This document shows positions 12,428 to 29,424 of a stretch of 64,000 bases of DNA, in pieces. Both the position numbers and the translations under genes were made by a program. The notes beneath the pieces were generated by a model that saw nothing but the letters and a program-made list of their open reading frames with translations, had not been told where the DNA came from and did not search any database. Within the stretch, counting starts at the first letter, position 1; each line of letters starts with the position of its first letter. Source of the DNA: Limnochordia bacterium (GTDB taxonomy: Bacteria; Bacillota; Limnochordia; DUMW01); NCBI GenBank assembly GCA_023230925.1, contig JALNWK010000006.1:3515-67514 (forward strand). Reading direction: 5' to 3'.

Positions 12428-12471
12428 ACACAGACTGCCGATACCATGGGGTTTTGCCGGAGTAGTTTTGT

Positions 12472-12500
12472 TTGACAAAACTAGTAGTGTTTGCTAAACT
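12472..12500 (+). promoter_or_regulatory. candidate sigma-A promoter (TTGACA-17-TAAACT) driving the purM leader
   Basis: TTGACA at 12472-12477, a 17-nt spacer, then TAAACT at 12495-12500. It lies upstream of the structured leader. Confidence 0.35.
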
Positions 12501-12544
12501 GAAGGCGCCAAAGCTGGTTAGAATTCCGGCTTCGGGAGAAGAAT

Positions 12545-12690
12545 AACTATGAAAGTGCATCTAGGGTTCCGCCTGTTTTAGGGACTGTGACCGAGTGATG
12601 CAGGCATGCTTTTTTAATGCCACACCTTAGCGGGATAAAAACCCTGGCGGGCAGGTTTCATGGAAATAGACCGTGCCTGCCTTTTTTTAT
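12545..12690 (+). ncRNA. ykkC-family riboswitch-like leader (probably subtype 2 / PRPP class) with an intrinsic terminator expression platform
   Basis: Contains CUAGGGUUCCG (12561-12571), recalled from memory as the ykkC-family hallmark, which needs a covariance-model check. P1 pairs UGCAU with AUGCA. The ACCGAG element and the GGGAUAAAAACCC hairpin are followed by a GGCAGG...CCUGCC stem and a U7 tract. The 3' aptamer strand overlaps the terminator 5' strand. Sits upstream of purMNHD. Confidence 0.45.
12646..12688 (+). terminator. rho-independent terminator (expression platform of the purM leader)
   Basis: GGCGGGCAGG...CCUGCC stem followed by TTTTTTT at 12682-12688. Confidence 0.6.
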
Positions 12691-12822
12691 ATTAATTTTG
12701 CTAAAGGCCAATCCAACATGGTGTTTGGTAGATGCTAGTACTAAGAGTTGCTCCGGGACAACCCCGGTAGCATTCCTTTGTATCACTTAAACTGATTTAC
12801 CCAAGATAATGGAGTGAGGGAT

Positions 12823-16126: not shown

Positions 16127-17404
16127 TTGAAGGTATTGGTAATCGGCAGTGGTGGCAGGGAGCACGCCTTAGTCTGGGCTATGTCCAAAAGCCCTAAGGT
16201 CAAGACGATTTACTGTTACCCTGGAAATGCCGGAATCGCACATCTAGCAGAGTGTCCAAAACTACCGTCAAGCAAGGTAGGCTCCATTGCTGATTGGGCG
16301 CAGGCTGAGCAGATTGACTTGACCGTTGTGGGACCGGAAGCTTACCTAGCCCAGGGGATCGTGGATGAGTTCGAAGGACGAGGGCTACGCATCTTCGGAC
16401 CAAGTAAGAGAGCTGCCCAACTGGAATCAAGCAAGGTCTTTGCTAAAGAGCTCATGAGAAAATACGGTATTCCCACCGCGGATTACCGGGTTTTTTCGGA
16501 TCTAGAAAAGGCCTTGGATTATGTAACAAGCGCCACCCTGCCTATTGTAATCAAGGCCGATGGTTTAGCTGCTGGAAAGGGTGTAATTGTTGCTGCTACC
16601 CGGGAGGTTGCCCAAGGGGCCCTGCTGGATTTGATGGCGGATAAGGTTTTTGGCCAGGCGGGAGAGCAGGTGGTCATTGAGGAGTTCCTTCAAGGGGAAG
16701 AGGCTAGTCTCCTAGCCTTTACCGATGGTAAGACCATTATTCCCATGGTTTCTGCCCAGGACCATAAGCAGATCTATGAGGGGGGACAAGGTCCCAATAC
16801 TGGGGGCATGGGGGCCTACTCCCCAACACCGGTACTGAACGAGGCCTTGATCCAAGAAGTCTACAACCAGATCCTAGTGCCTACGGTGGCGGGCCTAAGG
16901 AAAGAAGGGATCCTTTATAAAGGAGTTATCTATGCTGGCCTGATGGTCCATCAAGGAAAGGCCAAGGTGGTGGAGTTTAATTGCCGCTTCGGGGATCCCG
17001 AGGCCCAGGTGGTGCTGACGAGATTGCTTACGGATCTAGTTGATGTGATGGATGCGGTAATCGATGAGTGCCTAGAGGAGATTGAGCTTCGCTGGGATCA
17101 GCGGGCTGCGGTTTGTGTTATTCTCGCTTCTGGAGGCTATCCGGGCGAGTATCGGAAGGGATATCCCATCAGTGGACTTGCCGATGTTGAAGGAATGCAG
17201 GATGTATATGTGTTCCACAGCGGTACTAGGTTTGAAGATGAAGACATGGTCACCGATGGGGGGCGGGTCCTCGGGGTAACGGCTTTGGATTTGGATGTGT
17301 CTGAGGCGATCAAAAGGACTTACGCCGCGGTGGAGCAGATCCAGTTTAAGGACGCGTATTACCGCAAAGACATTGCTAGTCGTGCTTTGGAATCTTTGGA
17401 TTAA
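16127..17404 (+). CDS. purD: phosphoribosylamine--glycine ligase
   Basis: MKVLVIGSGGREHAL N-terminus and ATP-grasp motifs. TTG start. Confidence 0.9.
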   Translation: MKVLVIGSGGREHALVWAMSKSPKVKTIYCYPGNAGIAHLAECPKLPSSKVGSIADWAQAEQIDLTVVGPEAYLAQGIVDEFEGRGLRIFGPSKRAAQLESSKVFAKELMRKYGIPTADYRVFSDLEKALDYVTSATLPIVIKADGLAAGKGVIVAATREVAQGALLDLMADKVFGQAGEQVVIEEFLQGEEASLLAFTDGKTIIPMVSAQDHKQIYEGGQGPNTGGMGAYSPTPVLNEALIQEVYNQILVPTVAGLRKEGILYKGVIYAGLMVHQGKAKVVEFNCRFGDPEAQVVLTRLLTDLVDVMDAVIDECLEEIELRWDQRAAVCVILASGGYPGEYRKGYPISGLADVEGMQDVYVFHSGTRFEDEDMVTDGGRVLGVTALDLDVSEAIKRTYAAVEQIQFKDAYYRKDIASRALESLD

Positions 17405-19166
17405 CATTGATTGTACGGTAGTTTTCGTAGATAACAAAGCCTGGCCGTGCACCACTTGGTTTTCTGACGTATTTCACGAAGGTATAGTCCACGGGGATGT
17501 TTTGCCCTTGGCGGGCCTTACTAAAGTACGCGGCGATTTGGGCGGCATATACGAGCACATGTTCCGGGATCTCCGTCAGATCACCCATTTTACGCTCCGC
17601 GCGGATGATCACATGGGATCCTGGAATTTGCTTGGTATGGAGCCAAATATCATGGGGACGGGCCAGCTTTAAAGTTAGCTGGTCATTCTCCTTATTGTTC
17701 CGACCCACCTGGATGAGGACGCTATCTGGTCCCCGGAAGATGAGGGGTTGGGATCTTTTTCCCTCACGGCTCTTCTGGGAGGGTGTGGCAATGTATCCTT
17801 GCTCCATCAACTCGGCCTTAATTCGCTCAAGATCCTCCACTGTCTCTCCAAGTTCAATGTGGGTTTGTACCGTTAGCAGGTAATCTATCTCCTCGCGAAC
17901 ACTCTCTAGGTGTTCCTCGGTGATCTTTCTTCCCCTTTTCGCCTTTTGGTACATGCGGAAGTATTGTTCGGCCATGGCCGCCGGAGTAAACTTTGGATCC
18001 AATTCAATGGCGACTTCCCTTTGATTTGGATCATAATAGTCTGTGACTTTAATTATTGTTTGTCCCCGTTTGACTAGATGCAAATTGGCGGTAAGTAGTT
18101 CCCCTAGTTTACGAAACTCATCGGCATTTTCTGCCCGGGCTAAGGCATCGTTTAGATCAACTACTTTTCGCTGGCAATTTTTCAACTGGTTGGAGATTAC
18201 CGACATCAACTGGGTTTGTAGCTGGGCGCATCTTCTTAGGTCTGCTTTTATCCGGAAATAGTCACTAACTAAGGCACTTGGACTCGTGTATGACTTCTTT
18301 GTTGTATGGGCTAGATGGTGAATTCGTGTTGCCGCGATGTCCAGTGGCTTTCCATCTTGATCCATAATCATTGTGGGGGAGAAGTGGCCCCCCGCTATTG
18401 CTTTTCCGAAAGATTCCAGCTCCTGGTGCAACCGCGTAATCATCGATTCATCAAGGGTATGGGCCGGAAGACTGGGACTAATCTCGCTCCGATAAAGAAT
18501 TTCGGCGATAAGTAAGGGACTCAACCCCAATAATCCTTGCAGGAGCGCGTTATCAATTTGTTTGGAGCTATCTAAGCTGCTAGTTAGCTCCTGCTTACTT
18601 AATGGATAAAAAGGTCTTCTCTTTGCGGCTGGTGGTTGAATATATCGCAGGCCCGGTAGTACCTGCCGGTACCGGCTCATTCGCTCGGTTACGGGCTTTA
18701 AGACTGCCAAGATCTCCCTGGTCCTTGTATCGACCGCAATGAGGTTGCTGTGACGTCCCATGATCTCCGCCACCAGATCGATGGTTCCTTCTTCTGTCTC
18801 GACGCGCAGATGAAAAAGACGATCCCAATCTGGTTGCTTTGTGTCCACTATCTGCCCACCGATAAGTATTTTGCGAAGGGCAAGGCCAAAGGCATAGATC
18901 GACTGTTCAAAGGGCTGTTGGACCAGATGGAGGCGTGCATCAGTTGGTTCTGTGGAGAACAATAGCTGATACTCCTCATCGGGTCGCCGCAGGCCAAGGA
19001 CCACCGTTGTCGGATCCGGTTGATAGATCCTGGCAATGCGCGCTCCTAAAATTGAAGGTGTAATCTCATGGCTAATTGCTGCTAGCATAACTCCATCAAA
19101 GGGCATAGGGATCCTTCCTTGTAGATCAATTATACTATCTAGAATAACATATTTTGCGAAACGCAA
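17376..19166 (-). CDS. fibronectin-binding protein A / NFACT-family ribosome quality control protein (RqcH-like)
   Basis: 596 aa. NFACT-N, coiled-coil middle and NFACT-R/DUF814 C-terminal architecture (HVLV...PGFV). Its 3' end overlaps purD convergently by 29 nt. Confidence 0.75.
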   Translation of the reverse strand: MRFAKYVILDSIIDLQGRIPMPFDGVMLAAISHEITPSILGARIARIYQPDPTTVVLGLRRPDEEYQLLFSTEPTDARLHLVQQPFEQSIYAFGLALRKILIGGQIVDTKQPDWDRLFHLRVETEEGTIDLVAEIMGRHSNLIAVDTRTREILAVLKPVTERMSRYRQVLPGLRYIQPPAAKRRPFYPLSKQELTSSLDSSKQIDNALLQGLLGLSPLLIAEILYRSEISPSLPAHTLDESMITRLHQELESFGKAIAGGHFSPTMIMDQDGKPLDIAATRIHHLAHTTKKSYTSPSALVSDYFRIKADLRRCAQLQTQLMSVISNQLKNCQRKVVDLNDALARAENADEFRKLGELLTANLHLVKRGQTIIKVTDYYDPNQREVAIELDPKFTPAAMAEQYFRMYQKAKRGRKITEEHLESVREEIDYLLTVQTHIELGETVEDLERIKAELMEQGYIATPSQKSREGKRSQPLIFRGPDSVLIQVGRNNKENDQLTLKLARPHDIWLHTKQIPGSHVIIRAERKMGDLTEIPEHVLVYAAQIAAYFSKARQGQNIPVDYTFVKYVRKPSGARPGFVIYENYRTINVNPKIPKHD

Positions 19167-19213
19167 CTAATGGAAAGCGAAAAAACGCGGATGCCTCAGG
19201 GGAGCATAACGCG

Positions 19214-19243
19214 CTACGGGGGCGGTAGAAACCGCCCCCGTAG
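19214..19243 (-). terminator. perfect GC-rich palindrome downstream of the SBP-fusion gene (possible terminator)
   Basis: CTACGGGGGCGG-TAGAAA-CCGCCCCCGTAG, a perfect 12-bp inverted repeat. No clear U-tract follows. Confidence 0.35.
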
Positions 19244-19258
19244 CCATTGGTTCGGAGA

Positions 19259-21190
19259 TTAGTAGGGTGTAAGTTGCCAGTCACTAAAGACGGCTTTTCC
19301 GGTTTTGGTTGCCGCATGGGATGTTGAAGCTGGGCCGACCAACACCTTTTCTGGTAGGTCGATATCCACAGTACCCAACGTGACCCAGACTTTCCCGTCG
19401 AAGGACATTTGGCCTGTGACAGTGAATTCCCTGCGGATTAATTTCAAGTACACCGGCTCTCCATTAGTCCAAGAGACGCTCTTGACCTGGGTGGCATAGT
19501 CGCCTACCCCTTGCCGTTCTTGCATTACCAGACCATTCTTACCCGTACCTAGCACAGTGACGTTGGCTGATTCTGCGGTGGCCTCACTACGCAGCATGAT
19601 ACCTGATTTGGACCAGGGATCTGTATCCGGCGCGGAGTGGAGGCACAGGACTGCTTCGAAATCGCCTGCAACTTCCTGGTAGACAAATCCGAAGCCATCT
19701 CTGTATGACCAGATGTCGGCTCCTGCGGCCTCAATGACGAGCTTACCATCCTTTTGCACCACGGCTGACCCAGGTATTGCGGTGTTAAGGTCTTGACTTA
19801 TCCAGTCTTGACCTTGCCATTTCACTTCCCTGCGCACAGGTCCCTGGGCAGTTGATGCAAGGGTGCGATTCATGGCGGCGATGGCCTCAGACCAAGTAGG
19901 ACCAACAGGTGCGCCTTGATCGAAGATCTTTGTATACGCATCTTTAAAGGCCCTTTCACTGACCATCGGATCTGAGTAAATTACCTCTGGATGGGCGTAG
20001 GCCCCTGCGTCAGTGAAGACAAAAGTATTAATGTCATACACATCCATGTTTAGCACCCGCATGAGATCTAGGTACTCCGGTGCCACATCACGATGGGCCG
20101 GTGCTAAGGCCAGGTACTTGGCCTTGATTTCATTGGCCATTGGACCAGCGAGGAACTTCAACAGGGCGTATGCTTCTTCGGGATGCTTTGTATTCTTGTT
20201 GATCCCGTATCCGTCGTTGGTAGCTAAGGTGGAGCGCTCCCCTGAGGGACCAATGGGCATGGGGAACAGGTTCCACTCAAAGGAGACCTTTGGTCGCCCG
20301 TCCTTTTGTAGCCCGAGGAAGCTAACTAGGCTCCAGGACCCATCTTCCATAATGGCGGCTTGGCTTTGGAGCCAGCTTGTTGGGGCATTGGGCGGTGCCA
20401 TTACTTGGGATTCCCAACGAAGACCCTGCAGGAATTCTAAAGCCTCGATTGCTTGGGGATTATCCAGGGTACTTACTGTTTTCTCCTCGTTCCCATAAAA
20501 GTCTGTACCAGCGGCCTTCATCCAATAATGAATTCGATCAGTTGCGGTCATCCATTTGGTGAATCCCCACACATCGGTGACTCCATCACCGTCAATATCT
20601 TGGGTTAGTTTCTTGGCAATTGCTTCAAAATCTTCCCAGTCCATTGTGCTTTGATCGGCCCGCGGCTCGGGATTATGGATCCCATGAGCAGCGAACATAT
20701 CCGCATTGTAGTACATGGCGATGGTTCCTAAGTACTGGGGAAGCCCGAATAGCTGTTCTTGATGCTTGAACGCCTCAAACTGTGGTGGCCAATAGCATTG
20801 CTCTACTTCCTCGTAAATGCCATCCTTTTCTAGTAATGGTTTTAGGTCGACGAACCCGCCTTGCCTCCCTAAGTTGATAAAGGCATGTCCCATCCCATTG
20901 ACGATATCCGGTCCCTTTCCGCCGATGATCATTACCGTCATTTGCTCCATACTTCCTGTCCGGAAGACTAGATCAACATAAGGGTACTCCTTCTGGAATT
21001 CCTGGGTTAGGATCTCCGTCCATGGGGTGGTCCCATAGTCTTGTACTACGTTCACATTGGGATTACGTCCTGCTGTAAGGACGACTTCAAGGGTAATCCG
21101 TTCTTGCTCTGCATTTATGTGCGTAGGTAAGAGGATTACCGATAGCATACATACAAAGACTAACCAGCGACGAATACCTCTAAAATGCAT
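19259..21190 (-). CDS. secreted extracellular solute-binding protein (family 1 SBP) fused to a C-terminal ConA-like DUF1349 domain
   Basis: ATG at 21190 with an AAGGAGG RBS. Signal peptide MHFRGIRRWLVFVCMLSVILLPTHINA. About 400-aa SBP_bac_1-like core. C-terminal about 200 aa with GDFEAVLCL...SGIMLR, the DUF1349 / beta-xylosidase C-terminal lectin-like fold. No adjacent permease genes. Confidence 0.6.
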   Translation of the reverse strand: MHFRGIRRWLVFVCMLSVILLPTHINAEQERITLEVVLTAGRNPNVNVVQDYGTTPWTEILTQEFQKEYPYVDLVFRTGSMEQMTVMIIGGKGPDIVNGMGHAFINLGRQGGFVDLKPLLEKDGIYEEVEQCYWPPQFEAFKHQEQLFGLPQYLGTIAMYYNADMFAAHGIHNPEPRADQSTMDWEDFEAIAKKLTQDIDGDGVTDVWGFTKWMTATDRIHYWMKAAGTDFYGNEEKTVSTLDNPQAIEALEFLQGLRWESQVMAPPNAPTSWLQSQAAIMEDGSWSLVSFLGLQKDGRPKVSFEWNLFPMPIGPSGERSTLATNDGYGINKNTKHPEEAYALLKFLAGPMANEIKAKYLALAPAHRDVAPEYLDLMRVLNMDVYDINTFVFTDAGAYAHPEVIYSDPMVSERAFKDAYTKIFDQGAPVGPTWSEAIAAMNRTLASTAQGPVRREVKWQGQDWISQDLNTAIPGSAVVQKDGKLVIEAAGADIWSYRDGFGFVYQEVAGDFEAVLCLHSAPDTDPWSKSGIMLRSEATAESANVTVLGTGKNGLVMQERQGVGDYATQVKSVSWTNGEPVYLKLIRREFTVTGQMSFDGKVWVTLGTVDIDLPEKVLVGPASTSHAATKTGKAVFSDWQLTPY

Positions 21191-21911
21191 AATGACTACT
21201 CCTCCTTTAGATTGATAGACCCCAACCAGGGAAGGCTCTCCAGGTTTGCGATACTGCTTTTGATGACAACCCTCCTTCATATTCGACTGCAACCTGATCT
21301 GTCCCAGGCGTTTATATTCCTGTGTTCTGTAACTGATCTGTTCTAAGTGGCGGCGATTGTATAACAAAGAGTTTGTGCACCAAAACAATTGGCTGGGCTG
21401 TACGACGATGCTCTCGCGGTTTGATGGGCGTTGTTCAGCTTGACATTCATAAAGAATTTATTAATCGATGATTACATAAACATACTTCGCCAAAGGTTCA
21501 CGTTTTCCTGCAGTAATCGAAAGTTAATTGGTTCGAAAAAGAAGGCAGACGAACTAATCGAAGTGATGTGGCTGGTCATGTCATGATTGGTGAGGTTATC
21601 AAGTACGGGGATATGTGGGAGCCAAAGACTGGCTGCGTTGAGTAAGTGTGGTACATGATAAACTGTGGTAGCATAGAAAATCAAGAACATGCACGTGTGG
21701 CAGCATAGCCCAAGCTACATAGGATGGAGTTTTGGGAAGCAAAGCATCCGGTTCTAGATGGTTCTAGGGTCTCTTCTATTTCCAAAAACAGATGAGGCGA
21801 TACGGCATGGTAGCGATGAGAAGTTCAGCAGGAATATAGGGGTTTCATAGCCAACGTAGATAATGAAACGGAAATTTCTTCGTGCGACGCGGAGGTGGTG
21901 GTTTTTCGGCT

Positions 21912-22322
21912 ATGGAGTTGCGGACAGATGCATACCACGCCACCAAAGAAAAGGCTGCTTTAGAAATATGTGGAGGCGGTTTTGACTATACACGATGTTC
22001 AAAGAACAGTCGTTTAGGGCCTGGGGCGTATTTTTTCGATGACATTGACCGTGCGATCCGGTATACTAAGAATGCAAGCCACTTACGCGACCATCGGTGT
22101 TCGGTGCTCTCGTGTGTGATCCGTTGTTCGCCGGAACATTTACTGGACTTGACCAAAATAGCACAGCGGAACGAACTAAAAAGAGTCGTGGCTGTTATAG
22201 TCAAGAAAACACCTGAATTGAACAATAAACAAGCGGAATCGGTAGCGGTGCAGATGGTTTCAGAATCGCAAGGGGTTGGAGTGGTCAAAATGATCATGCC
22301 CTCAGGATGGAACAGGATATAA
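21912..22322 (+). CDS. hypothetical protein; candidate toxin of a TAC-like module
   Basis: 136-146 aa ORF (the track begins at GTG 21882) in an AT-rich islet. Motifs DAYHAT, GGGFDY, GPGAYFFDD and SPEHL occur in H...Y...E order, reminiscent of a minimal ART/KptA-like fold (speculative). Confidence 0.35.
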   Translation: MELRTDAYHATKEKAALEICGGGFDYTRCSKNSRLGPGAYFFDDIDRAIRYTKNASHLRDHRCSVLSCVIRCSPEHLLDLTKIAQRNELKRVVAVIVKKTPELNNKQAESVAVQMVSESQGVGVVKMIMPSGWNRI

Positions 22323-22464
22323 TAAACTAGGGTATATGAACGATGAGTATTTGATTTACTGTGTGAAGAGACCGGGATTTATTTTCGACGTTCGTGTGGC
22401 GAGATGTCACTCCGAGCTTGAGGGAGCGTAAAGGTATCAAGTTAAAAGGTGGAGGTGGGGAGAA

Positions 22465-22704
22465 GTGTTAACCCGTGAAATTGCTGATCGGTTGATCGAG
22501 CAATTTGAAAACATGTCAGAGGCGGATAGAGATGCTCTATTTGAGAGGGCCGGAGTACGATTTTTGGCCGATGACATCCAGGATCTCGTAGAGGAATATG
22601 AGCAAGAAGTCTGCTACTACAACCGCCTTTCTTCGTACCGGTTTGATTTTGCTGATGGGTTGAGTGCAAAAGGTATTTTTTTTACTGGTGTTGATGCCGC
22701 ATGA
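22465..22704 (+). CDS. small acidic protein; candidate antitoxin / chaperone-addicted partner
   Basis: GTG start after a GGTGGAGGTGGGG RBS. 79 aa, highly acidic, with an aromatic-rich C-terminus (YRFDFADGLSAKGIFFTGV). Its stop overlaps the start of the SecB-like gene (ATGA). Confidence 0.35.
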   Translation: MLTREIADRLIEQFENMSEADRDALFERAGVRFLADDIQDLVEEYEQEVCYYNRLSSYRFDFADGLSAKGIFFTGVDAA

Positions 22705-23180
22705 CGGGTCTAGATAAGATTAAGCGCGTGTTTGAATTCCGGTCCTATACAATTGAACAACTAGAGCTTTCGATAGACCCGGAGAGAATGTTTCGTAAGG
22801 ACGAGGAAATTGAGCTTAGGACGTTTTTGGGGAGATCACAAGTCCTAAGCGGCAGCGGGGATACGGGTGTTGTCCGTCTCTTCTGTCGAATCCAATCGGA
22901 TTTTCAAGATGAAGATACTCCTACGCTTTTGCTCAGCTTGACACTTCAAGGTCTTTTTGGATTTAATGACGAAGAGGAACTGCCTGTAGAGGTCAAAAAG
23001 GAATTGCTCGACAGGAACGCTGTTAGTGTACTGTTTCCTTATCTGCGCTCGACTATCAGCAGCGTCACACAGGCTGCAGGCATTCAGCCAATTGTTTTGC
23101 CTATCATCAATCCCGCTACAATAGATGAAGTTAGCCATAGTCCAACCGACAGTGTACAATCTGCTTCGGACAGCGAATAG
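22701..23180 (+). CDS. SecB-like chaperone (protein-export chaperone SecB family)
   Basis: 159 aa. The C-terminal block VSVLFPYLRSTISSVTQAAGIQPIVLPIINP aligns with E. coli SecB [29 protein letters not shown]. Upstream beta-sheet region (YTIEQLELSIDPERMF). Translationally coupled to the upstream small ORF. Confidence 0.65.
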   Translation: MTGLDKIKRVFEFRSYTIEQLELSIDPERMFRKDEEIELRTFLGRSQVLSGSGDTGVVRLFCRIQSDFQDEDTPTLLLSLTLQGLFGFNDEEELPVEVKKELLDRNAVSVLFPYLRSTISSVTQAAGIQPIVLPIINPATIDEVSHSPTDSVQSASDSE

Positions 23181-23390
23181 GTGGATGCGGTTTCGCCGGG
23201 TACAGGCCCCGGAATCTTCTGGGGCTTCTTCTACGTTCAAAAGTAGATGCTTTTGGTCCAGGTACATACCCGATCTGACTTTGCTGGGGTCTTGGATTGG
23301 GTACTTGCCATCCTTGCCTCATGGAAGTAGGACTGGTAAAATAGGATGAGGAACTGGCTTTGATCTTAGGCTAGACCGAATGAGAATGGG

Positions 23391-24155
23391 GTGGCTAGAT
23401 TGAAGAAGAAGTTACTGATTGGCATACTGGTGGTTTTGGTCCTTTTTACCTATATAACTCCCCTTAGTGCAAGGATAGATAGCATTGAGGAATATGTAAA
23501 GACAATCCTGGACACCTATACACTTTGGTTAGTCCATCTTGGTATAGATAACCTAGAGGTTGCCTCAGGCCAATTGGAGCAGGCTACCTCCAGTTACCCC
23601 GATGGCGCCCATCAGCACTTGCTCCTAGCCACGTCATACCTTGGTCAGGGCAAGGCGAAAGACGCGATCTCAGCCTACCAAAAGGTTGTAGATATGGGTC
23701 CTGAGTATTACTGGGTAAAGGCTCTTATTGGTGAGGTTTATTTGAAGCAGGAAGACTACGATCAGGCTGAAGAACTTTTCCTTGAAGTGATCGCAGAGGA
23801 TGAGAACTCGGCCCTTGCCCTAAAGGGTTTGGGTCTTTGCAGCCAGCATCGGCAGGAAGATGAAACTGCGATGGAGTATTACGAGCGGAGCTTGGAGATT
23901 GCTCCCAATGCTCCCGAAGTATATCTGGAATTGGCGTTGTTGAAAATCAAGGCGAATGAGCAGGAAGAAGCTCTGACGATTCTAGAGACCGGCAGGCTTT
24001 TCAATCTTGATGATCCTCGGATTCATTACTATCTTGGTATGCTGTATGAGGAAAAGGGAGATTTAGAGGCTGCTTCCCATGAGTATTACCGGGCGGTGCA
24101 GTTAGATCCCCAAAACGATCCAGCGGCAAAGCGCCTTGAGAATATGCCCAATTAA
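23391..24155 (+). CDS. membrane-anchored TPR-repeat protein
   Basis: N-terminal TM/signal anchor, then several TPR repeats (AISAYQKVVDMGPEYYWVKALIGEVYLKQEDYDQAEELF...). Confidence 0.6.
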   Translation: MARLKKKLLIGILVVLVLFTYITPLSARIDSIEEYVKTILDTYTLWLVHLGIDNLEVASGQLEQATSSYPDGAHQHLLLATSYLGQGKAKDAISAYQKVVDMGPEYYWVKALIGEVYLKQEDYDQAEELFLEVIAEDENSALALKGLGLCSQHRQEDETAMEYYERSLEIAPNAPEVYLELALLKIKANEQEEALTILETGRLFNLDDPRIHYYLGMLYEEKGDLEAASHEYYRAVQLDPQNDPAAKRLENMPN

Positions 24156-24169
24156 GGGTTGCTTAGGAC

Positions 24170-24207
24170 GACCCGTCGGTTCCCATGGAACTGACGGGTC
24201 TTTTTTA
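24170..24207 (+). terminator. rho-independent terminator after the TPR gene
   Basis: GACCCGTCGGTTCC...GGAACTGACGGGTC hairpin followed by TTTTTT. Confidence 0.7.
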
Positions 24208-24268
24208 TGGCCCCAGTGAATATTGATTAACTTGAGGTTAGTTTTATCTTGTCCTGGGGAGTTGTGCT

Positions 24269-26932
24269 ATGACGGATAAATGGTATCAGGGTTCTATAGG
24301 CGAGGTACTGCAAAAGCTTGATACAGACGCGGGGCGGGGACTGAGCCAGAAAAAAGCCGATGAACGGCTGGCCAAGCATGGTCCTAATCACCTGCGGCAA
24401 TTGAAGAAGATATCGCCCCTTGGTCTTTTCTTGTCCCAGTTTCAGGATTTCATGGTGGTTATTCTCCTATGTGCCATGCTCATATCTATTCTCCTCGATG
24501 AAATGGCCGATGCGTGGGCGATTATCGCCATTGTACTTCTAAACGGATTTCTGGGCTTCATCCAAGAATACCGGGCAGAGAGATCCCTGGAGGCACTGCG
24601 CAGACTAACTGCACCTCGCACCAAGGTGTTCCGGGACGGCTCCGTGCAGCAGATACCCGCGGAACTATTGGTACCCGGAGATATTATTCTCCTAAACAGT
24701 GGCGACCGGATACCGGCCGACTGTCGTCTGGTTGAGTCTTTTTCCCTGTATACCGATGAGTCTGCTTTAACCGGGGAATCCCTCCCCATATCCAAGGACT
24801 ACCAATGGATTGGAACGGGGGAGACGCCCTTAGGTGATCGCAAAAACAGTCTCTATATGGGTACTGTGGTGACCGCTGGTCGGGGTGTGGCGGTGGTTAC
24901 CGAAACAGGCATGTCAAGTGAAGTAGGAAGGATTGCTGCTATGCTGCAGGATGCTGGTCGGCTTGCGACACCGTTGGAGGTAAGACTTGCTCAGTTGGGA
25001 CGTTGGTTAGTTGCCGCTTGCCTTCTTCTTGTGGTAGTGGTATTTGCCAGTGGGGTTTGGCGGGGTATACCGGTACTAGAGATGTTTATGATTGCCGTAA
25101 GTCTGGCTGTGGCCGCCATTCCCGAGGGACTTCCTGCTGTGGTGACCATTGCCCTGGCCTTAGGGGTACAAAGGATGAGTCGCCGGGCCGCGATTATCCG
25201 CAGATTACCTGCGGTGGAAACCTTAGGCTGTACCGACATCATCTGTTCAGATAAGACCGGAACCCTTACGGAAAACAGAATGCAGGTGCAACGTCTTTGG
25301 ATTGGAGGAGCAGTTCACAAAGGGCAAGGACTGCTAGACCTTGGCATACCCCAGGAGGGCACCGACCTATTCTGGGCATTGCGTGTTTGCGGTTTGTGCA
25401 ATAGTGCGAATATAGAACACAGGGCATCCTTTACCGGTGGGTTAGTTGTGCAAGGGGATCCCACCGAAGCGGCTCTGGTCCAGTTGTCTCATCTCTTGAC
25501 TAAAGAGGTGGATAAACATCACCGGGAATACCTTCTCCTAGGTGAGCTGCCCTTTAGCTCGGAGCGGAAACGCATGACGGTACTCTATAGTCTTAAAGGC
25601 GAAGGGGTGGGCCTAACCAAGGGCGCCTGGGAGGTTATTTTAGCCCGTAGCCGATACATTCATTGGGGAAGGGAGCGGATCCCCCTAACGGCGCTAAGCA
25701 GGCAAAGGATTTCCGAAATTGCCGAGGAAATGGCCCGGGATGCCCTGCGGGTAATGGCCTTAGCCTACAAGAAGGCAGATGGGTTAAAGGATATAGAAGA
25801 GGGTCTAACCTTTGTAGGACTTGTTGGACTTTATGATCCCCCCCGGCGCGAGGTAAAAGCAGCGATTAGAAAGGCGGAACAAGCGGGGATACGGACGATT
25901 ATGGTTACCGGCGACCACAAGACCACGGCTACGGCCATTGGAGTTGAGTTAGGTCTCGTCCAAAAGACAGCATCGGTGCTGACTGGTCATGAGTTGGATC
26001 GGCTCACGGATCGAGAGTTGATTATGCACCTTCAGCACGTAAGTGTATTTAGCCGTGTGTCACCGGAACACAAACTGCGGATTGTGCGCTGTCTAAAATC
26101 CATGGGGCATATTGTGGCTATGACCGGTGATGGGGTGAACGATGCTCCCGCGGTTGCCGAGGCAGATGTGGGTATTGCCATGGGTCAAGGAGGGACCGAC
26201 GTGACTAAGGAAGCATCGGACATGGTGCTTGCTGATGATAACTACGCCACAATCATCCATGCTATTGAAGAAGGACGGGGAGTCTACACTAACATAAGAA
26301 AGTTTGTCGGGTACCTACTTACCTGTAATGTTGGTGAAGTCCTCACGATGCTGGTGGCAACCTTGTTGAAACTGCCCTTACCCTTAGTTGCAGTGCAGAT
26401 CCTGTGGATGAACTTAGTGACCGACGGACTCCCCGCGGTGGCTTTGGGTATGGATCCACCTGGGGAAGACGTAATGAGAAAAAAACCCCGGCGGATCAAT
26501 GAACACATCCTATCGGGTGGTATGGCCCGGAGGATCTTCGGTCGGGGTAGTCTCCTTGGGCTATCCACCGTTGGGGTCTTTGCCATTGGCCTATGGCTTT
26601 ATCCGGGGAATATGGCCCGCGCCCGTAGTCTGGCCTTCTGTACCATTGTGTTGGCCCAGTTGCTCCACGCCTTTGAATGTAGTACCTATGGTGCTGGTCC
26701 CCGGGGTATCGTGGCTAATCCGTTGTTGGTTAGTGCGGTAAGTGTGAGTATCCTTATGCAGTTTGCCGTAGTCTATGTTCCCCTGCTGCGTAACTTGTTC
26801 CGTACCGTGGTGCTCTCACCCATGGACTGGGGGCTGATTCTACTGTTCGCCGGTTGGCCGTTGGTTCTTAACTGGACACTGAGGTTGCTGCGAAACCTTG
26901 CTTCCCCAAGGGTTAGCTGGCTACGTACTTGA
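24269..26932 (+). CDS. P-type Ca2+-transporting ATPase (SERCA/YloB type)
   Basis: 887 aa. DKTGTLT phosphorylation site, TGDHKTTA and TGDGVNDAPA motifs, 10 TM helices. Same position as B. subtilis yloB. Confidence 0.9.
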   Translation: MTDKWYQGSIGEVLQKLDTDAGRGLSQKKADERLAKHGPNHLRQLKKISPLGLFLSQFQDFMVVILLCAMLISILLDEMADAWAIIAIVLLNGFLGFIQEYRAERSLEALRRLTAPRTKVFRDGSVQQIPAELLVPGDIILLNSGDRIPADCRLVESFSLYTDESALTGESLPISKDYQWIGTGETPLGDRKNSLYMGTVVTAGRGVAVVTETGMSSEVGRIAAMLQDAGRLATPLEVRLAQLGRWLVAACLLLVVVVFASGVWRGIPVLEMFMIAVSLAVAAIPEGLPAVVTIALALGVQRMSRRAAIIRRLPAVETLGCTDIICSDKTGTLTENRMQVQRLWIGGAVHKGQGLLDLGIPQEGTDLFWALRVCGLCNSANIEHRASFTGGLVVQGDPTEAALVQLSHLLTKEVDKHHREYLLLGELPFSSERKRMTVLYSLKGEGVGLTKGAWEVILARSRYIHWGRERIPLTALSRQRISEIAEEMARDALRVMALAYKKADGLKDIEEGLTFVGLVGLYDPPRREVKAAIRKAEQAGIRTIMVTGDHKTTATAIGVELGLVQKTASVLTGHELDRLTDRELIMHLQHVSVFSRVSPEHKLRIVRCLKSMGHIVAMTGDGVNDAPAVAEADVGIAMGQGGTDVTKEASDMVLADDNYATIIHAIEEGRGVYTNIRKFVGYLLTCNVGEVLTMLVATLLKLPLPLVAVQILWMNLVTDGLPAVALGMDPPGEDVMRKKPRRINEHILSGGMARRIFGRGSLLGLSTVGVFAIGLWLYPGNMARARSLAFCTIVLAQLLHAFECSTYGAGPRGIVANPLLVSAVSVSILMQFAVVYVPLLRNLFRTVVLSPMDWGLILLFAGWPLVLNWTLRLLRNLASPRVSWLRT

Positions 26933-29223: not shown

Positions 29224-29424
29224 ATGAATCAACCATCAATAGATCGATTGCTAGGTAGAGTAGATAGTCGGTATACTGCAGTAGTAGCTGCGGCAAAAAG
29301 GGCGCGACAGTTATCTGAAGGAGCGGAACCATTAGCTGATGTACAGACTAATAAGCCTGTCACAGTTGCTCTTTATGAACTGGGTTCTGGTACTGTTAGG
29401 TACGAACGGATCCGTAAAAGTTGA
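29224..29424 (+). CDS. rpoZ: DNA-directed RNA polymerase subunit omega
   Basis: 66 aa, MNQPSIDRLL...RYTAVVAAAKRARQL. Confidence 0.85.
   Translation: MNQPSIDRLLGRVDSRYTAVVAAAKRARQLSEGAEPLADVQTNKPVTVALYELGSGTVRYERIRKS

Follow-up and report, generated by a model that had tools for sequence, protein, structure and literature searches.

The stretch of DNA analysed here, called the window, comprises 64,000 nucleotides (64 kb) from a Limnochordia bacterium, and the interval under study extends from position 21191 to 23390. Reading from left to right, an SBP gene on the minus strand is followed by an AT-rich spacer, by three small plus-strand genes in the order toxin, antitoxin and chaperone, and by the gene of a TPR protein, which is the conserved partner of a Ca-ATPase gene (Table 1). 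The three small genes, described in the initial annotation as TAC-like, indeed form a toxin-antitoxin-chaperone (TAC) cassette that resembles CmdTAC; in public records they are named hypothetical, hypothetical and "protein-export chaperone SecB".

Table 1. Positions of the features in and around the interval, in window coordinates, with the basis of each assignment.
Feature	Position	Strand	Basis
Lineage-variable slot, from rqcH promoter region to TPR promoter	~19170..23297		Homology limits versus nearest relative
Perfect hairpin after SBP stop (14-bp stem, 4-nt loop, 100% complementary)	19213..19244	-	Inverted repeat I8
SBP_bac_1 + DUF1349 fusion gene, accessory, inside slot	19259..21190	-	Pfam
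AT-rich spacer between divergent SBP gene and TAC cassette	21191..21885		GC 0.438; no coding or RNA feature detected
Terminator-like relic (hairpin 21753-21768, U-rich tail to ~21783, homology to 21800)	21753..21800	+	Terminator scan, fold, L128 homology
CmdTAC-like cassette, block homologous to L128	21886..23245	+	BLASTN
Truncated toxin ORF, 136 aa, PARP-like / H-Y-[E] class ADP-ribosyltransferase	21912..22322	+	Pfam PARP, family profile
Deletion point (14 nt missing after 22308) and out-of-frame toxin C-terminal remnant	22309..22441	+	L128 alignment
Antitoxin candidate, 79 aa	22465..22704	+	Position; 73% identical to L128 middle gene
SecB-like TAC chaperone (CmdC-like)	22701..23180	+	PADLOC, Pfam
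Intrinsic-terminator-like hairpin of cassette (10-bp stem, U-rich tail)	23204..23235	+	Fold; L128 homology
Promoter-like site of TPR gene, TTGCCT-17-TAAAAT with TG, conserved backbone	23314..23342	+	Promoter scan; kept in nearest relative
TPR protein gene, right-hand backbone flank	23391..24155	+	Adjacency to Ca-ATPase gene kept in relatives

The SBP gene matches the Pfam family SBP_bac_1 with E = 3.8e-30, and its DUF1349 part scores 31 bits, which is under the cut-off of 32.4 bits. Translation starts with the ATG at 21190, which is preceded by an AGGAGG site, although the reading frame can be extended to a TTG at 21388; the perfect hairpin after its stop codon is likely to be its terminator. 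Homologues with 57-64% identity occur in unrelated sugar-utilisation loci and look like paralogues, for which reason the gene was dropped as a synteny anchor.

The interval had been described as an AT-richer islet, set against about 52% GC outside. Windowed GC and k-mer calculations bear out the dip and correct the reference value: the mean GC of the window is 0.498, that of the islet 21191-23390 is 0.460 (1.5th percentile), and that of 21191-21881 is 0.438, the lowest of any 690-bp stretch in the 64 kb and a level reached by 0.1% of such stretches. The tetranucleotide distance from the window average has its maximum here as well, with z = +3.5 in 2.2-kb windows starting at 20801-21001, the top value of the 64 kb. 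The compositional contrast is modest, 3-6 GC points. When the other intergenic stretches of the window are taken as control, their GC is found to vary between 0.35 and 0.54 (0.448, for example, in 12428-12813), which means that the low GC of the spacer is largely typical of non-coding DNA in this genome. The reduced GC of the TAC genes, with a GC3 of 0.41-0.48 compared with 0.51-0.55 in neighbouring genes, is the more relevant compositional signal.

The slot between rqcH and the TPR gene

In the nearest relative (L135/L137), RqcH, the TPR protein and the ATPase are 66%, 73% and 75% identical at the protein level to those of the window, and the gene pairs purD-rqcH and TPR-ATPase are both retained. 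Homology with this relative covers some 55 nt of upstream sequence at rqcH and some 95 nt at the TPR gene and then stops; the slot in between is there filled with 8-9 kb of different genes, arranged differently from strain to strain, among which the closest counterpart of the SBP gene is only 26% identical; the SBP gene and all three TAC genes are absent at this place. In L140 the slot contains a single gene. The adjacency of the TPR and ATPase genes is retained in L134-L136 with 73% identity and in L140 with 31% identity. Scans with RqcH of genome and metagenome contigs returned only relatives of at most 37% identity, which were used for deep synteny, and in distant Firmicutes rqcH lies directly beside the Ca-ATPase gene or yicC. 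None of the strains compared has an empty site.

The initial annotation placed the interval between conserved chromosomal genes. This is correct for the TPR gene, which belongs to the conserved backbone, but not for the SBP gene, which is accessory and has no orthologue in the slot of the nearest relative; in the comparison of loci that the annotation had proposed, the slot of this relative is filled with other genes.

In a strain of 99.65% identity from another sample (L007), a UPF0236 transposase gene occupies the place of the cassette to the left of the TPR gene, and the breakpoint of this IS, at 23296/23297, coincides with the edge of the backbone. The promoter-like site in front of the TPR gene is situated right of this breakpoint. 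Other contigs of the present species that span the site have the same arrangement as the window. No integrase, att site or repeats, tRNA or target duplication marking an insertion was found at the slot. A 15-nt perfect inverted repeat (21381-21395 and 23085-23099) was considered as a pair of terminal repeats and rejected, because its second arm is coding sequence of the chaperone, is not kept in the homologous cassette L128 described below, and is matched with a BLAST E value of 0.13.

The toxin-antitoxin-chaperone cassette

In another metagenome, a homologue of the cassette (L128) adjoins an HNH-endonuclease-like ORF, and BLASTN aligns 21886-23245 of the window with L128 100-1469 at 75% identity over 1377 columns. 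A 35%-identical homologue (L129) is found in a third context, and the order toxin-antitoxin-chaperone is common to all three. That the cassette has homologues in two other contexts and is absent from the nearest relative, where the flanks are kept, agrees with the original suggestion of a probable horizontal insertion carrying a small mobile or defence module.

The hairpin near the right end of the cassette is homologous to the L128 terminator, and the fold of 23195-23260 has a z-score of -2.15. The homology block begins just 26 nt ahead of the toxin start and has a hairpin at its end, which is why an integron gene cassette was also considered. It was rejected because the flanking hairpins are plain terminators, with stems of 6-11 bp followed by U-rich tails, which lack the inverted R''/L''-L'/R' cores of an attC site (their structure being judged by eye); an integron integrase or attC array was found nowhere in the 64 kb, one of the two analyses behind this result having covered 19000-24400. 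Protein and motif scans of viral contigs gave no match that would point to a viral origin, and tblastn with the chaperone gave one weak phage match and no plasmid match.

The chaperone is matched by two PADLOC models of PD-T4-9_C, PDLC04072 (E = 4.2e-16) and PDLC04071 (E = 2.5e-8), and the chaperones of L128 and L129 match CmdC models as well. Its Pfam SecB score is 28.3 bits, compared with a cut-off of 26 bits. A housekeeping SecB, as implied by the NCBI name, was rejected, the best NCBIfam SecB score being 29 bits against cut-offs of 103-223 bits. The gene in front of it, whose stop codon overlaps the chaperone start by 4 nt, encodes a protein whose N-terminal part is acidic and probably helical and whose C-terminal tail, YYNRLSSYRFDFADGLSAKGIFFTGVDAA, is rich in aromatic residues, as judged by inspection, and L129 has a 78-aa gene at the same position. 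Profile searches with this protein, including Pfam, NCBIfam and PADLOC, gave neither a family match nor an HTH; its position and the description of CmdA (PMC11618068) suggest that it is the antitoxin.

The toxin gene probably starts with the ATG at 21912, as also called by NCBI and in one JGI contig, and its reading frame ends at TAA TAA (22317-22322). The product scores 26.7 bits with Pfam PARP, exactly at the cut-off, and its family profile finds PARP10 (E = 4e-4) followed by PARP12, tankyrases and exotoxin A; the motifs YHAT (H9) and GPGAYFF (Y40) both align with PARP10. An exhaustive HMMER search at E <= 1e-3 detected 14 relatives among 1.84 billion representatives, and a word-index protein search returned only the toxin itself and P0002. 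The PADLOC model of CmdT, PD-T4-9_A, matches neither the window toxin nor the 177-aa L128 toxin nor P0003, even at E <= 10. It does match two of the 14 relatives, P0009 and P0012 (E = 5.9e-7 and 1.1e-3), and these two proteins match the window toxin with E values of 3e-5 and 4e-4, respectively. An AlphaFold2 model of the 136-aa product is too poor (pLDDT 63.6) to judge the fold by, and Foldseek found nothing in the PDB at E <= 0.001.

When the toxin gene is aligned with L128, there is a gap of 14 columns, TTCTGGAATCAAAA, after which the remnant reads in the +1 frame and ends in ...DGTGYNKLGYMNDEYLIYCVKRPGFIFDVRVARCHSELEGA*. The "intergenic" 142 bp after the ORF thus hold the C terminus of the toxin (22323-22441), and full-length toxins with this C terminus comprise 177 aa in L128 and about 178 aa in P0003/L129. 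A conserved acidic residue in an [ED]-[YW]-x-I strand (NDEYLIY), a Glu assigned as catalytic by motif resemblance only, lies behind the frameshift and outside the ORF, and the H-Y-[E/D/Q] triad is incomplete in the window and complete in the L128 homologue. The truncated toxin occurs in at least 11 independent contigs from NCBI, JGI, ENA and Logan. The gene has lost 14 nt, is frameshifted and stops at residue 136, and since the strand with the conserved acidic residue comes only after this point, we most likely see a relic that was disarmed recently, which still encodes antitoxin and chaperone and the toxin of which would have lost its activity. A pseudogene, which the initial annotation had considered possible in the 690-bp stretch, is accordingly present at the locus in another form, as the toxin gene with its deletion and frameshift.

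Because the window toxin matches Pfam PARP and PARP10 rather than CmdT profiles, and because only those 14 relatives were detected, one may also think of the toxin and its few relatives as a separate, very rare lineage, which became joined with SecB-type chaperones independently of canonical CmdT. This is conceivable and, on balance, unlikely; if true, the toxin would represent a new family among TAC toxins, and its substrate might differ.

The spacer and alternative readings

The initial claim that about 690 bp lack a convincing ORF holds for the whole of 21191-21881. The longest stop-free segments of the spacer are 80, 60, 54 and 53 aa, and no ORF of at least 20 aa has a credible ribosome-binding site, the sole pass being a 20-aa TTG ORF with a 4-nt AAGG match. 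With the probable toxin start at 21912, the gap between the genes becomes about 721 bp, which is the longest between called genes in the surrounding 20 kb; the next-longest called gap, 351 bp, actually holds rpoZ. (These lengths were taken from the L001 gene calls; a greedy ORF map fills the gaps with spurious ORFs.) The spacer lies outside the L128 homology block, and the relatives available for it are either near-identical or very distant.

Promoter scans of the spacer gave weak promoter-like sites on the minus strand (21383-21356 and 21684-21655) and on the plus strand (21558-21587 and 21697-21725), none of them a convincing sigma-70-type promoter. As none is of consensus quality, the divergent promoters proposed for this stretch are still presumptive: both the SBP gene and the cassette are presumably transcribed from promoters within the spacer.

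Two copies of ggttctag, noted previously as direct repeats, are present at 21750-21757 and 21761-21768. They are trivial alone, yet they fall within the region of a terminator-like hairpin with a homologue elsewhere. Positions 21754-21800 align (E = 4e-4, small local database) with L128 1433-1479, the terminator that immediately follows the SecB-like gene of that locus, and the two share the exact 20-mer GGTTCTAGGGYYTYTTCTAT, for which the expected number of matches is 0.03 per window. With the TAC terminator of the window itself, the relic has a weaker similarity (76% over 33 nt). The homology to L128 is short, 47 nt with 74% identity.

Suppose that the 690-bp stretch consists of one or more decayed genes of a delivering element, i.e., an integrase, a transposase, a phage gene or a second TAC copy, of which only the terminator can still be recognised. 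This would account for a plus-strand hairpin (21753-21783) that is homologous to a TAC-cassette terminator and is not preceded by a gene, and it would fit with the position of the stretch as the lowest in GC and most atypical of the window, with the gene decay seen in the neighbouring toxin, and with one marginal PHROG match of unknown function (E = 0.0018) in the stop-free segment 21425-21583. However, Pfam and NCBIfam searches on six-frame pieces detected no integrase, transposase or other protein remnant in the spacer, nor did tblastn, for which 2,350 translated ORFs from related loci and the window's own proteins, those of the TAC genes included, served as queries, and blastn found no DNA similar to the spacer in phages, in plasmids, in the rest of the window or in the related loci compared. 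The PHROG match is taken as chance, because tblastn gave it no support in 50,697 phage records, and a 74%-identical terminator next to coding DNA decayed beyond detection would be an unlikely pairing. We regard decayed genes in the stretch, among them the degraded integrase or transposase suggested at the outset, as quite improbable. Less probable again is an unannotated regulatory RNA, either an sRNA that ends at the same hairpin or, for the SBP gene, a long structured leader. The hairpin, with its U-rich tail, is located about 130 nt upstream of the toxin start, both weak plus-strand sites are upstream of it, and the minus-strand site 21684-21655 would yield an SBP leader of about 460 nt. 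All of these promoter candidates are nevertheless far from consensus, diverged copies for covariation are absent, the fold energies are like those of shuffled sequences (z = -0.30, -1.46 and +1.01), and Rfam 15 matches nothing in the stretch at E <= 1 on either strand, its only two matches in 19000-25000, both at chance level (E = 0.69 and 0.95), being located at the SBP terminator (19072-19245). The sRNA of the initial annotation thereby loses its footing, and a spacer RNA that ends at the duplicated terminator and controls the cassette is less likely than the separate toxin lineage.

Suppose, instead, that nothing was acquired horizontally, that the SBP gene, the spacer and the three small genes have all long belonged to this lineage, and that the dip in GC reflects a long intergenic region next to short genes. 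The spacer GC is then, as observed, within the range of other intergenic DNA, the contigs of this species that span the site all agree, and there is neither a mobility gene nor a flanking repeat to account for. But the nearest relative is without all four genes at this place, a copy of the cassette elsewhere is 75% identical when the backbone proteins of that relative are only 66-75% identical at the protein level, the 99.65%-identical strain has a different left neighbour of the TPR gene, and the GC3 of the TAC genes is 5-10 points under that of their neighbours, all of which makes long residence very improbable. It is just as hard to believe that the toxin still functions, be it as a 136-aa product or by programmed frameshifting across 22293-22317. 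Some PARP-family enzymes are active without the catalytic Glu, the truncation is fixed in all sampled contigs, and the remnant is about 79% conserved with respect to L128, compared with 80% for the in-frame part. Such equal conservation is, however, expected from a recent deletion, and the 14 nt are missing in relation to both L128 and the outgroup P0003, which argues for a mutation and not a recoding signal. Inspection of the 24-nt overlap window reveals no slippery heptamer, and the 136-aa product, besides being modelled poorly, is without the last strands of the ADP-ribosyltransferase fold.

Interpretation and known systems

The reading that we favour, and think likely, is that of a variable slot with an SBP gene, a featureless spacer and an acquired CmdTAC-type cassette, disarmed by the 14-nt deletion in its toxin gene. 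The slot lies between the conserved blocks purD-rqcH and TPR-Ca-ATPase-yicC-gmk-priA, with the interval as its right-hand part. Besides the accessory SBP-DUF1349 gene it contains the spacer, about 0.7 kb long, and the cassette, which would have been acquired horizontally. The 690-bp stretch would be junction DNA left between two independently arranged units, no recognisable gene graveyard, with the terminator-like hairpin kept as its one scar. By analogy with E. coli CmdTAC (PMC11618068), an intact cassette would act as an abortive-infection switch, in which the SecB-like chaperone would hold an unstable antitoxin folded via the C-terminal tail of the latter. A newly made phage structural protein would titrate the chaperone, the antitoxin would be degraded, and the freed H-Y-[E/D/Q] ADP-ribosyltransferase would modify RNA and so halt translation. 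As the toxin gene is frameshifted, the system in the window is probably inactive.

The locus is ordinary genome flux and no new kind of element, and it opens no long-standing question. Its value lies mostly in annotation, since public records miss both the defence cassette and the toxin pseudogene. It would extend CmdTAC-like systems to Limnochordia, uncultured here and represented by MAGs and metagenome contigs, several of them from biogas and fermentation samples, it illustrates cleanly how TAC decay begins, with the toxin lost and antitoxin and chaperone kept, and it shows that cargo is accommodated in this lineage at the rqcH/yloB junction, which is deeply conserved. For a divergent PARP10-like RNA/protein ADP-ribosyltransferase toxin, the full-length homologue in L128 is the version of interest.

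With M. tuberculosis HigBA1-SecB(TA) (Rv1955-Rv1957) and E. coli HigBAC, the cassette shares the tripartite logic and the order toxin-antitoxin-chaperone. In TAC systems of this type (bioRxiv 10.1101/2024.02.24.581848), dependence on the SecB-like chaperone goes through the C-terminal ChAD tail of the antitoxin. They have, however, an RNase, HigB, as toxin and an antitoxin with an HTH, in contrast to the ADP-ribosyltransferase and the family-less antitoxin of the window. DarTG resembles the cassette in having an ADP-ribosyltransferase toxin as abortive-infection effector on mobile DNA, but DarT modifies DNA, its macrodomain antitoxin neutralises enzymatically and no chaperone takes part; the window has no macrodomain gene, and its toxin belongs to a different ADP-ribosyltransferase clade.

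CmdTAC (PD-T4-9) is known from E. coli ECOR22 / O112ab:H26 (Vassallo et al. 2022; PMC11618068; bioRxiv 10.1101/2024.02.24.581848), where a phage structural protein is the trigger and the toxin ADP-ribosylates mRNA (PMC11618068). The cassette is like it in being a three-gene operon of toxin, antitoxin and chaperone with a SecB-like chaperone that matches PD-T4-9_C, in its small toxin of the H-Y-[E/D/Q] (diphtheria-toxin/PARP) class, where H9 and Y40 of the window may be compared with Y41 of CmdT, in its short, family-less antitoxin with an aromatic-rich C-terminal tail, and in its location on mobile or variable DNA, which in E. coli is that of prophages. According to the published calling rule, the toxin matches CmdT/PD-T4-9_A and lies within two genes of CmdC (PMC11618068); in the window, the toxin does not conform to this rule, and the chaperone match and the gene order, with a short antitoxin in the middle, agree with CmdTAC. 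The cassette differs further in that its toxin and the full-length homologue, both without a PD-T4-9_A match, are linked to CmdT via distant relatives only, in that the toxin comes from a very small clade (14 matches in 1.84 billion), in its host, a Limnochordia bacterium, and in the frameshift of its toxin gene.

With a size of only 4 kb, and with one defence system beside a sugar-binding protein gene, the slot differs from a chromosomal hotspot or defence island; it resembles one in its fixed core flanks (rqcH on one side, TPR-ATPase on the other), in its varying cargo, in the IS activity at its edge and in the defence system that it carries.

Gene order and composition

The genes of the region are listed in the table, and the conserved backbone continues past the Ca-ATPase gene with yicC, remA, gmk, rpoZ, priA, def and fmt. 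The SBP gene, a fusion of SBP_bac_1 and DUF1349, starts with the ATG at 21190, which has an AGGAGG site ahead of it, and the most likely start of the putative toxin gene is the ATG at 21912. The genes purD and rqcH are convergent and their 3' ends overlap by 29 nt (17376-17404), as they do by 22 nt in the nearest relative. A 66-aa ORF with the look of rpoZ (it reads MNQPSIDRLLGRVDSRYTAVVAAAKRARQL…) lies at the position of rpoZ in the relatives and is not among the genes called on the Logan contig.

Features of the region around the rqcH–TPR interval
Feature	Position	Strand
purD	16127-17404	+
rqcH/NFACT	17376-19106	-
Terminator of the SBP gene	19213-19244	
SBP_bac_1 + DUF1349 fusion	19259-21190	-
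Stretch without credible ORF	21191-21881	.
Terminator-like element	21754-21800	
146/136-aa ORF, Pfam PARP match	21882 or 21912 to 22322	+
79-aa ORF	22465-22704	+
SecB-like ORF	22701-23180	+
Cassette terminator	23204-23235	
TPR gene	23391-24155	+
P-type Ca-ATPase	24269-26932	+
rpoZ-like ORF	29224-29424	+

The initial annotation described the interval 21191-23390 as an AT-richer islet against about 52% GC outside. The mean GC of the window is instead 0.498, and the islet is indeed AT-richer, with a GC of 0.460 (1.5 percentile), while the 0.438 of the ORF-free stretch is the lowest value among all 690-bp windows (0.1 percentile). The tetranucleotide deviation has its 64-kb maximum in the 2.2-kb windows that start at 20.8-21.0 kb (z = +3.5). 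Elsewhere in the window, intergenic GC values range from 0.35 to 0.54, and the dip in the spacer is mostly the effect of a long non-coding piece; the more relevant signal, although of modest size, is the lower GC of the three small genes (GC3 0.41-0.48, versus 0.51-0.55 in their neighbours). As the initial annotation had stated, the stretch is without a convincing ORF: its stop-free segments do not exceed 80 aa, and the number of ORFs of at least 20 aa with a credible ribosome-binding site is zero. The next-largest gap nearby, of 351 bp, contains the uncalled rpoZ, and from this follows that the spacer is an outlier in length. Both copies of ggttctag are present as well (21750-21757 and 21761-21768). 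What had been observed is confirmed, and what had been concluded from it is partly supported.

A variable slot between conserved blocks

In about 60 distant Firmicutes, rqcH is divergent and adjoins the Ca-ATPase gene or yicC, and in those loci that were checked none of the slot genes lies between them. The nearest relative found (six loci, including GCA_012839765.1), with protein identities of 66% for RqcH, 74% for PurD, 73% for TPR and 75% for the ATPase, has kept both the purD-rqcH and the TPR-ATPase pair, and has between rqcH and the TPR gene 8-9 kb of other genes, namely two for FAD oxidoreductases, one for a PL8 lyase and one for a 441-aa SBP with an identity of only 26%, in an arrangement that varies between samples. 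A more distant relative has a single mutase-like gene there. When contigs of the nearest relative that encode identical RqcH are compared, two gene orders appear upstream of rqcH (SBP-FAD-FAD-PL8 lyase, and 241 aa-PL8 lyase-LacI-227 aa-SBP-FAD), and its slot is therefore also rearranging at the strain level.

On the rqcH side, homology with the nearest relative ends about 55 nt upstream of the gene, and on the TPR side about 95 nt upstream, where the conserved portion includes a promoter-like site, TTGCCT-17-TAAAAT. These endpoints define a variable slot at about 19170-23297, which contains the SBP gene; this gene, previously taken as a conserved flank, has its homologues of 57-64% identity in unrelated sugar loci. 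It is an orphan, with no permease or ATPase genes nearby, and has its own terminator with a perfect 14-bp stem. Its family has many copies of 48-64% identity on Limnochordia-like metagenome contigs, often adjoining LacI, AraC or RpiR regulators and glycoside hydrolases.

The TPR-side edge is also where a contig from another sample (L007, Logan SRR31066035, 1-1876) departs from the window. It is 99.65% identical to 23297-24152, across the TPR gene, and breaks off at 23296/23297, the edge of the conserved backbone; in place of the cassette, its left part has a UPF0236 (ISLre2-like) transposase gene together with a membrane-protein gene of which the 3' end is present. This shows IS activity or rearrangement precisely at the backbone edge.

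The cassette and its toxin

The three small genes had been noted as TAC-like, and the chaperone bears this out: the SecB-like protein matches the PADLOC model PD-T4-9_C, that of CmdC, with E = 4.2e-16, and scores far under the cut-offs of housekeeping SecB models. The toxin matches Pfam PARP exactly at the cut-off, and a profile built from the toxin and its relatives matches PARP10 (E = 4e-4), PARP12, tankyrases and exotoxin A in a shared region, YH[AG]T ... GxGxYF. The toxin is rare: HMMER, run exhaustively on 1.84 billion representatives, gave 14 matches at E <= 1e-3. Its predicted structure is a poor model (pLDDT 63.6), with which Foldseek gave no match. Since the toxin has no direct match to the CmdT profiles, yet two of its distant relatives do, the cassette is best labelled CmdTAC-like, where the chaperone is a family member and the toxin falls outside the CmdT profiles.

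A homologous toxin-antitoxin-chaperone cassette occurs on a Logan contig (L128), with 75% identity over window positions 21886-23245. There the toxin ORF has 177 aa, ending ...GYDKLGYMNDEYLIYCVKKPGFVFDV..., and in comparison the window gene has lost 14 nt (TTCTGGAATCAAAA) after 22308, which shifts the frame into TAA TAA at 22317-22322. Read in the +1 frame, the remainder (...GYNKLGYMNDEYLIYCVKRPGFIFDVRVARCHSELEGA*) still extends to 22441, which is 23 nt ahead of the antitoxin start. Because the long form is found also in a more distant homologue (P0003, from locus L129), the deletion is the derived state, and because the truncated protein is encoded by at least 11 contigs from four sources, it is no assembly error. 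The remnant and the in-frame part are equally similar to L128, which indicates a recent event. The lost part includes an [ED]-[YW]-x-I strand whose conserved acidic residue is probably the third catalytic one, as suggested by resemblance to the PARP 'NEYIVY' and to the CmdT triad. The gene is read as a pseudogene, and that the toxin should still be active is most improbable.

Near the 3' end of the antitoxin gene (22676-22683) there is a T8/T7 length variant, which rewrites the last residues from ...GIFFTGVDAA to ...GIFLLVLMPHDGSR; T7 occurs in contig L005 and in P0193 and P0195, variants of 83 aa (five contigs, JGI and Logan). If the polymorphism is true, it may be a sign that the cassette is decaying further; otherwise it is a homopolymer error.

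The spacer and the origin of the interval

For the spacer (21191-21885) the initial annotation had considered an integrase or transposase remnant, an sRNA or divergent promoters. Nothing was found when six-frame pieces were compared with Pfam and NCBIfam, when all related-locus ORFs and the window's own proteins were used in tblastn, or when blastn was run with the spacer on phage and plasmid DNA, on the remainder of the window and on all loci; PHROGs gave one marginal match, of unknown function, which tblastn did not support among phages. A decayed mobility gene within the stretch has at most a slight chance. A hidden regulatory RNA is just as hard to credit, with nothing in Rfam at E <= 1 and folding z-scores of -0.30, -1.46 and +1.01. 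In this stretch, same-species contigs depart from the window sequence by just two substitutions and one 3-bp indel. As for divergent promoters, the promoter-like sites in the spacer are weak. A 15-nt perfect inverted repeat (21381-21395 / 23085-23099, CAAAACAATTGGCTG / CAGCCAATTGTTTTG) brackets most of the cassette and was judged to be due to chance, since its second arm lies within the coding sequence of the chaperone and L128 does not share it.

What the spacer does contain is a terminator-like element that includes the ggttctag repeat. Over 47 nt it shares 74% identity with the L128 terminator hairpin that lies directly 3' of the chaperone gene; an exact 20-mer, for which 0.03 matches per window are expected, is part of this match. 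Its likeness to the window's own cassette terminator is weaker, and it still folds into a hairpin with a U-rich tail. The block in common with L128 excludes the spacer, as its first position is only 26 nt from the start of the toxin gene. We read the element, from three examples, as a scar of cassette turnover at the site; its source could be a related cassette that was there earlier, or a junction formed by recombination. Downstream of the distant cassette, at L129 11290-11620, a promoter-like repeat of about 50 nt, GGTT(C/T)(T/C)AGCCC-A5-6-…TATAAT…, occurs twice, with only the octamer GGTTCTAG in common with the window element.

Searches for marks of an insertion gave neither a strain with an empty site nor an integrase, a tRNA or repeats at the flanks. 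In L128 the cassette is directly followed by an HNH-endonuclease-like ORF (1457-1830), which suggests a phage-like context, and in L129 it lies among sugar-transport and regulatory genes. The L128 ORF is broken by an in-frame TAG (…RFWD*SNWQPLCKPCHSRK…) and may be a pseudogene. Vertical origin of the interval is given very little weight; taken together, these comparisons lend good support to a horizontal acquisition of the cassette by a slot that is prone to recombination. We regard an explanation in three parts as probable: a slot with variable cargo, enclosed by conserved blocks; a CmdTAC-like cassette that was disarmed recently; and a plain spacer, in which neither a gene nor an RNA could be detected, that bears a terminator relic and presumably the promoters of the two divergent units.

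The main use of the analysis is in annotation correction. In CmdTAC, which is PD-T4-9, an unstable antitoxin and a SecB-like chaperone restrain an H-Y-[E/D/Q] ADP-ribosyltransferase toxin until competition for the chaperone by a phage capsid protein sets it free (PMC11618068; bioRxiv 10.1101/2024.02.24.581848). By analogy the cassette would work in the manner of this family, and the locus is a degenerate representative of a known kind of system.
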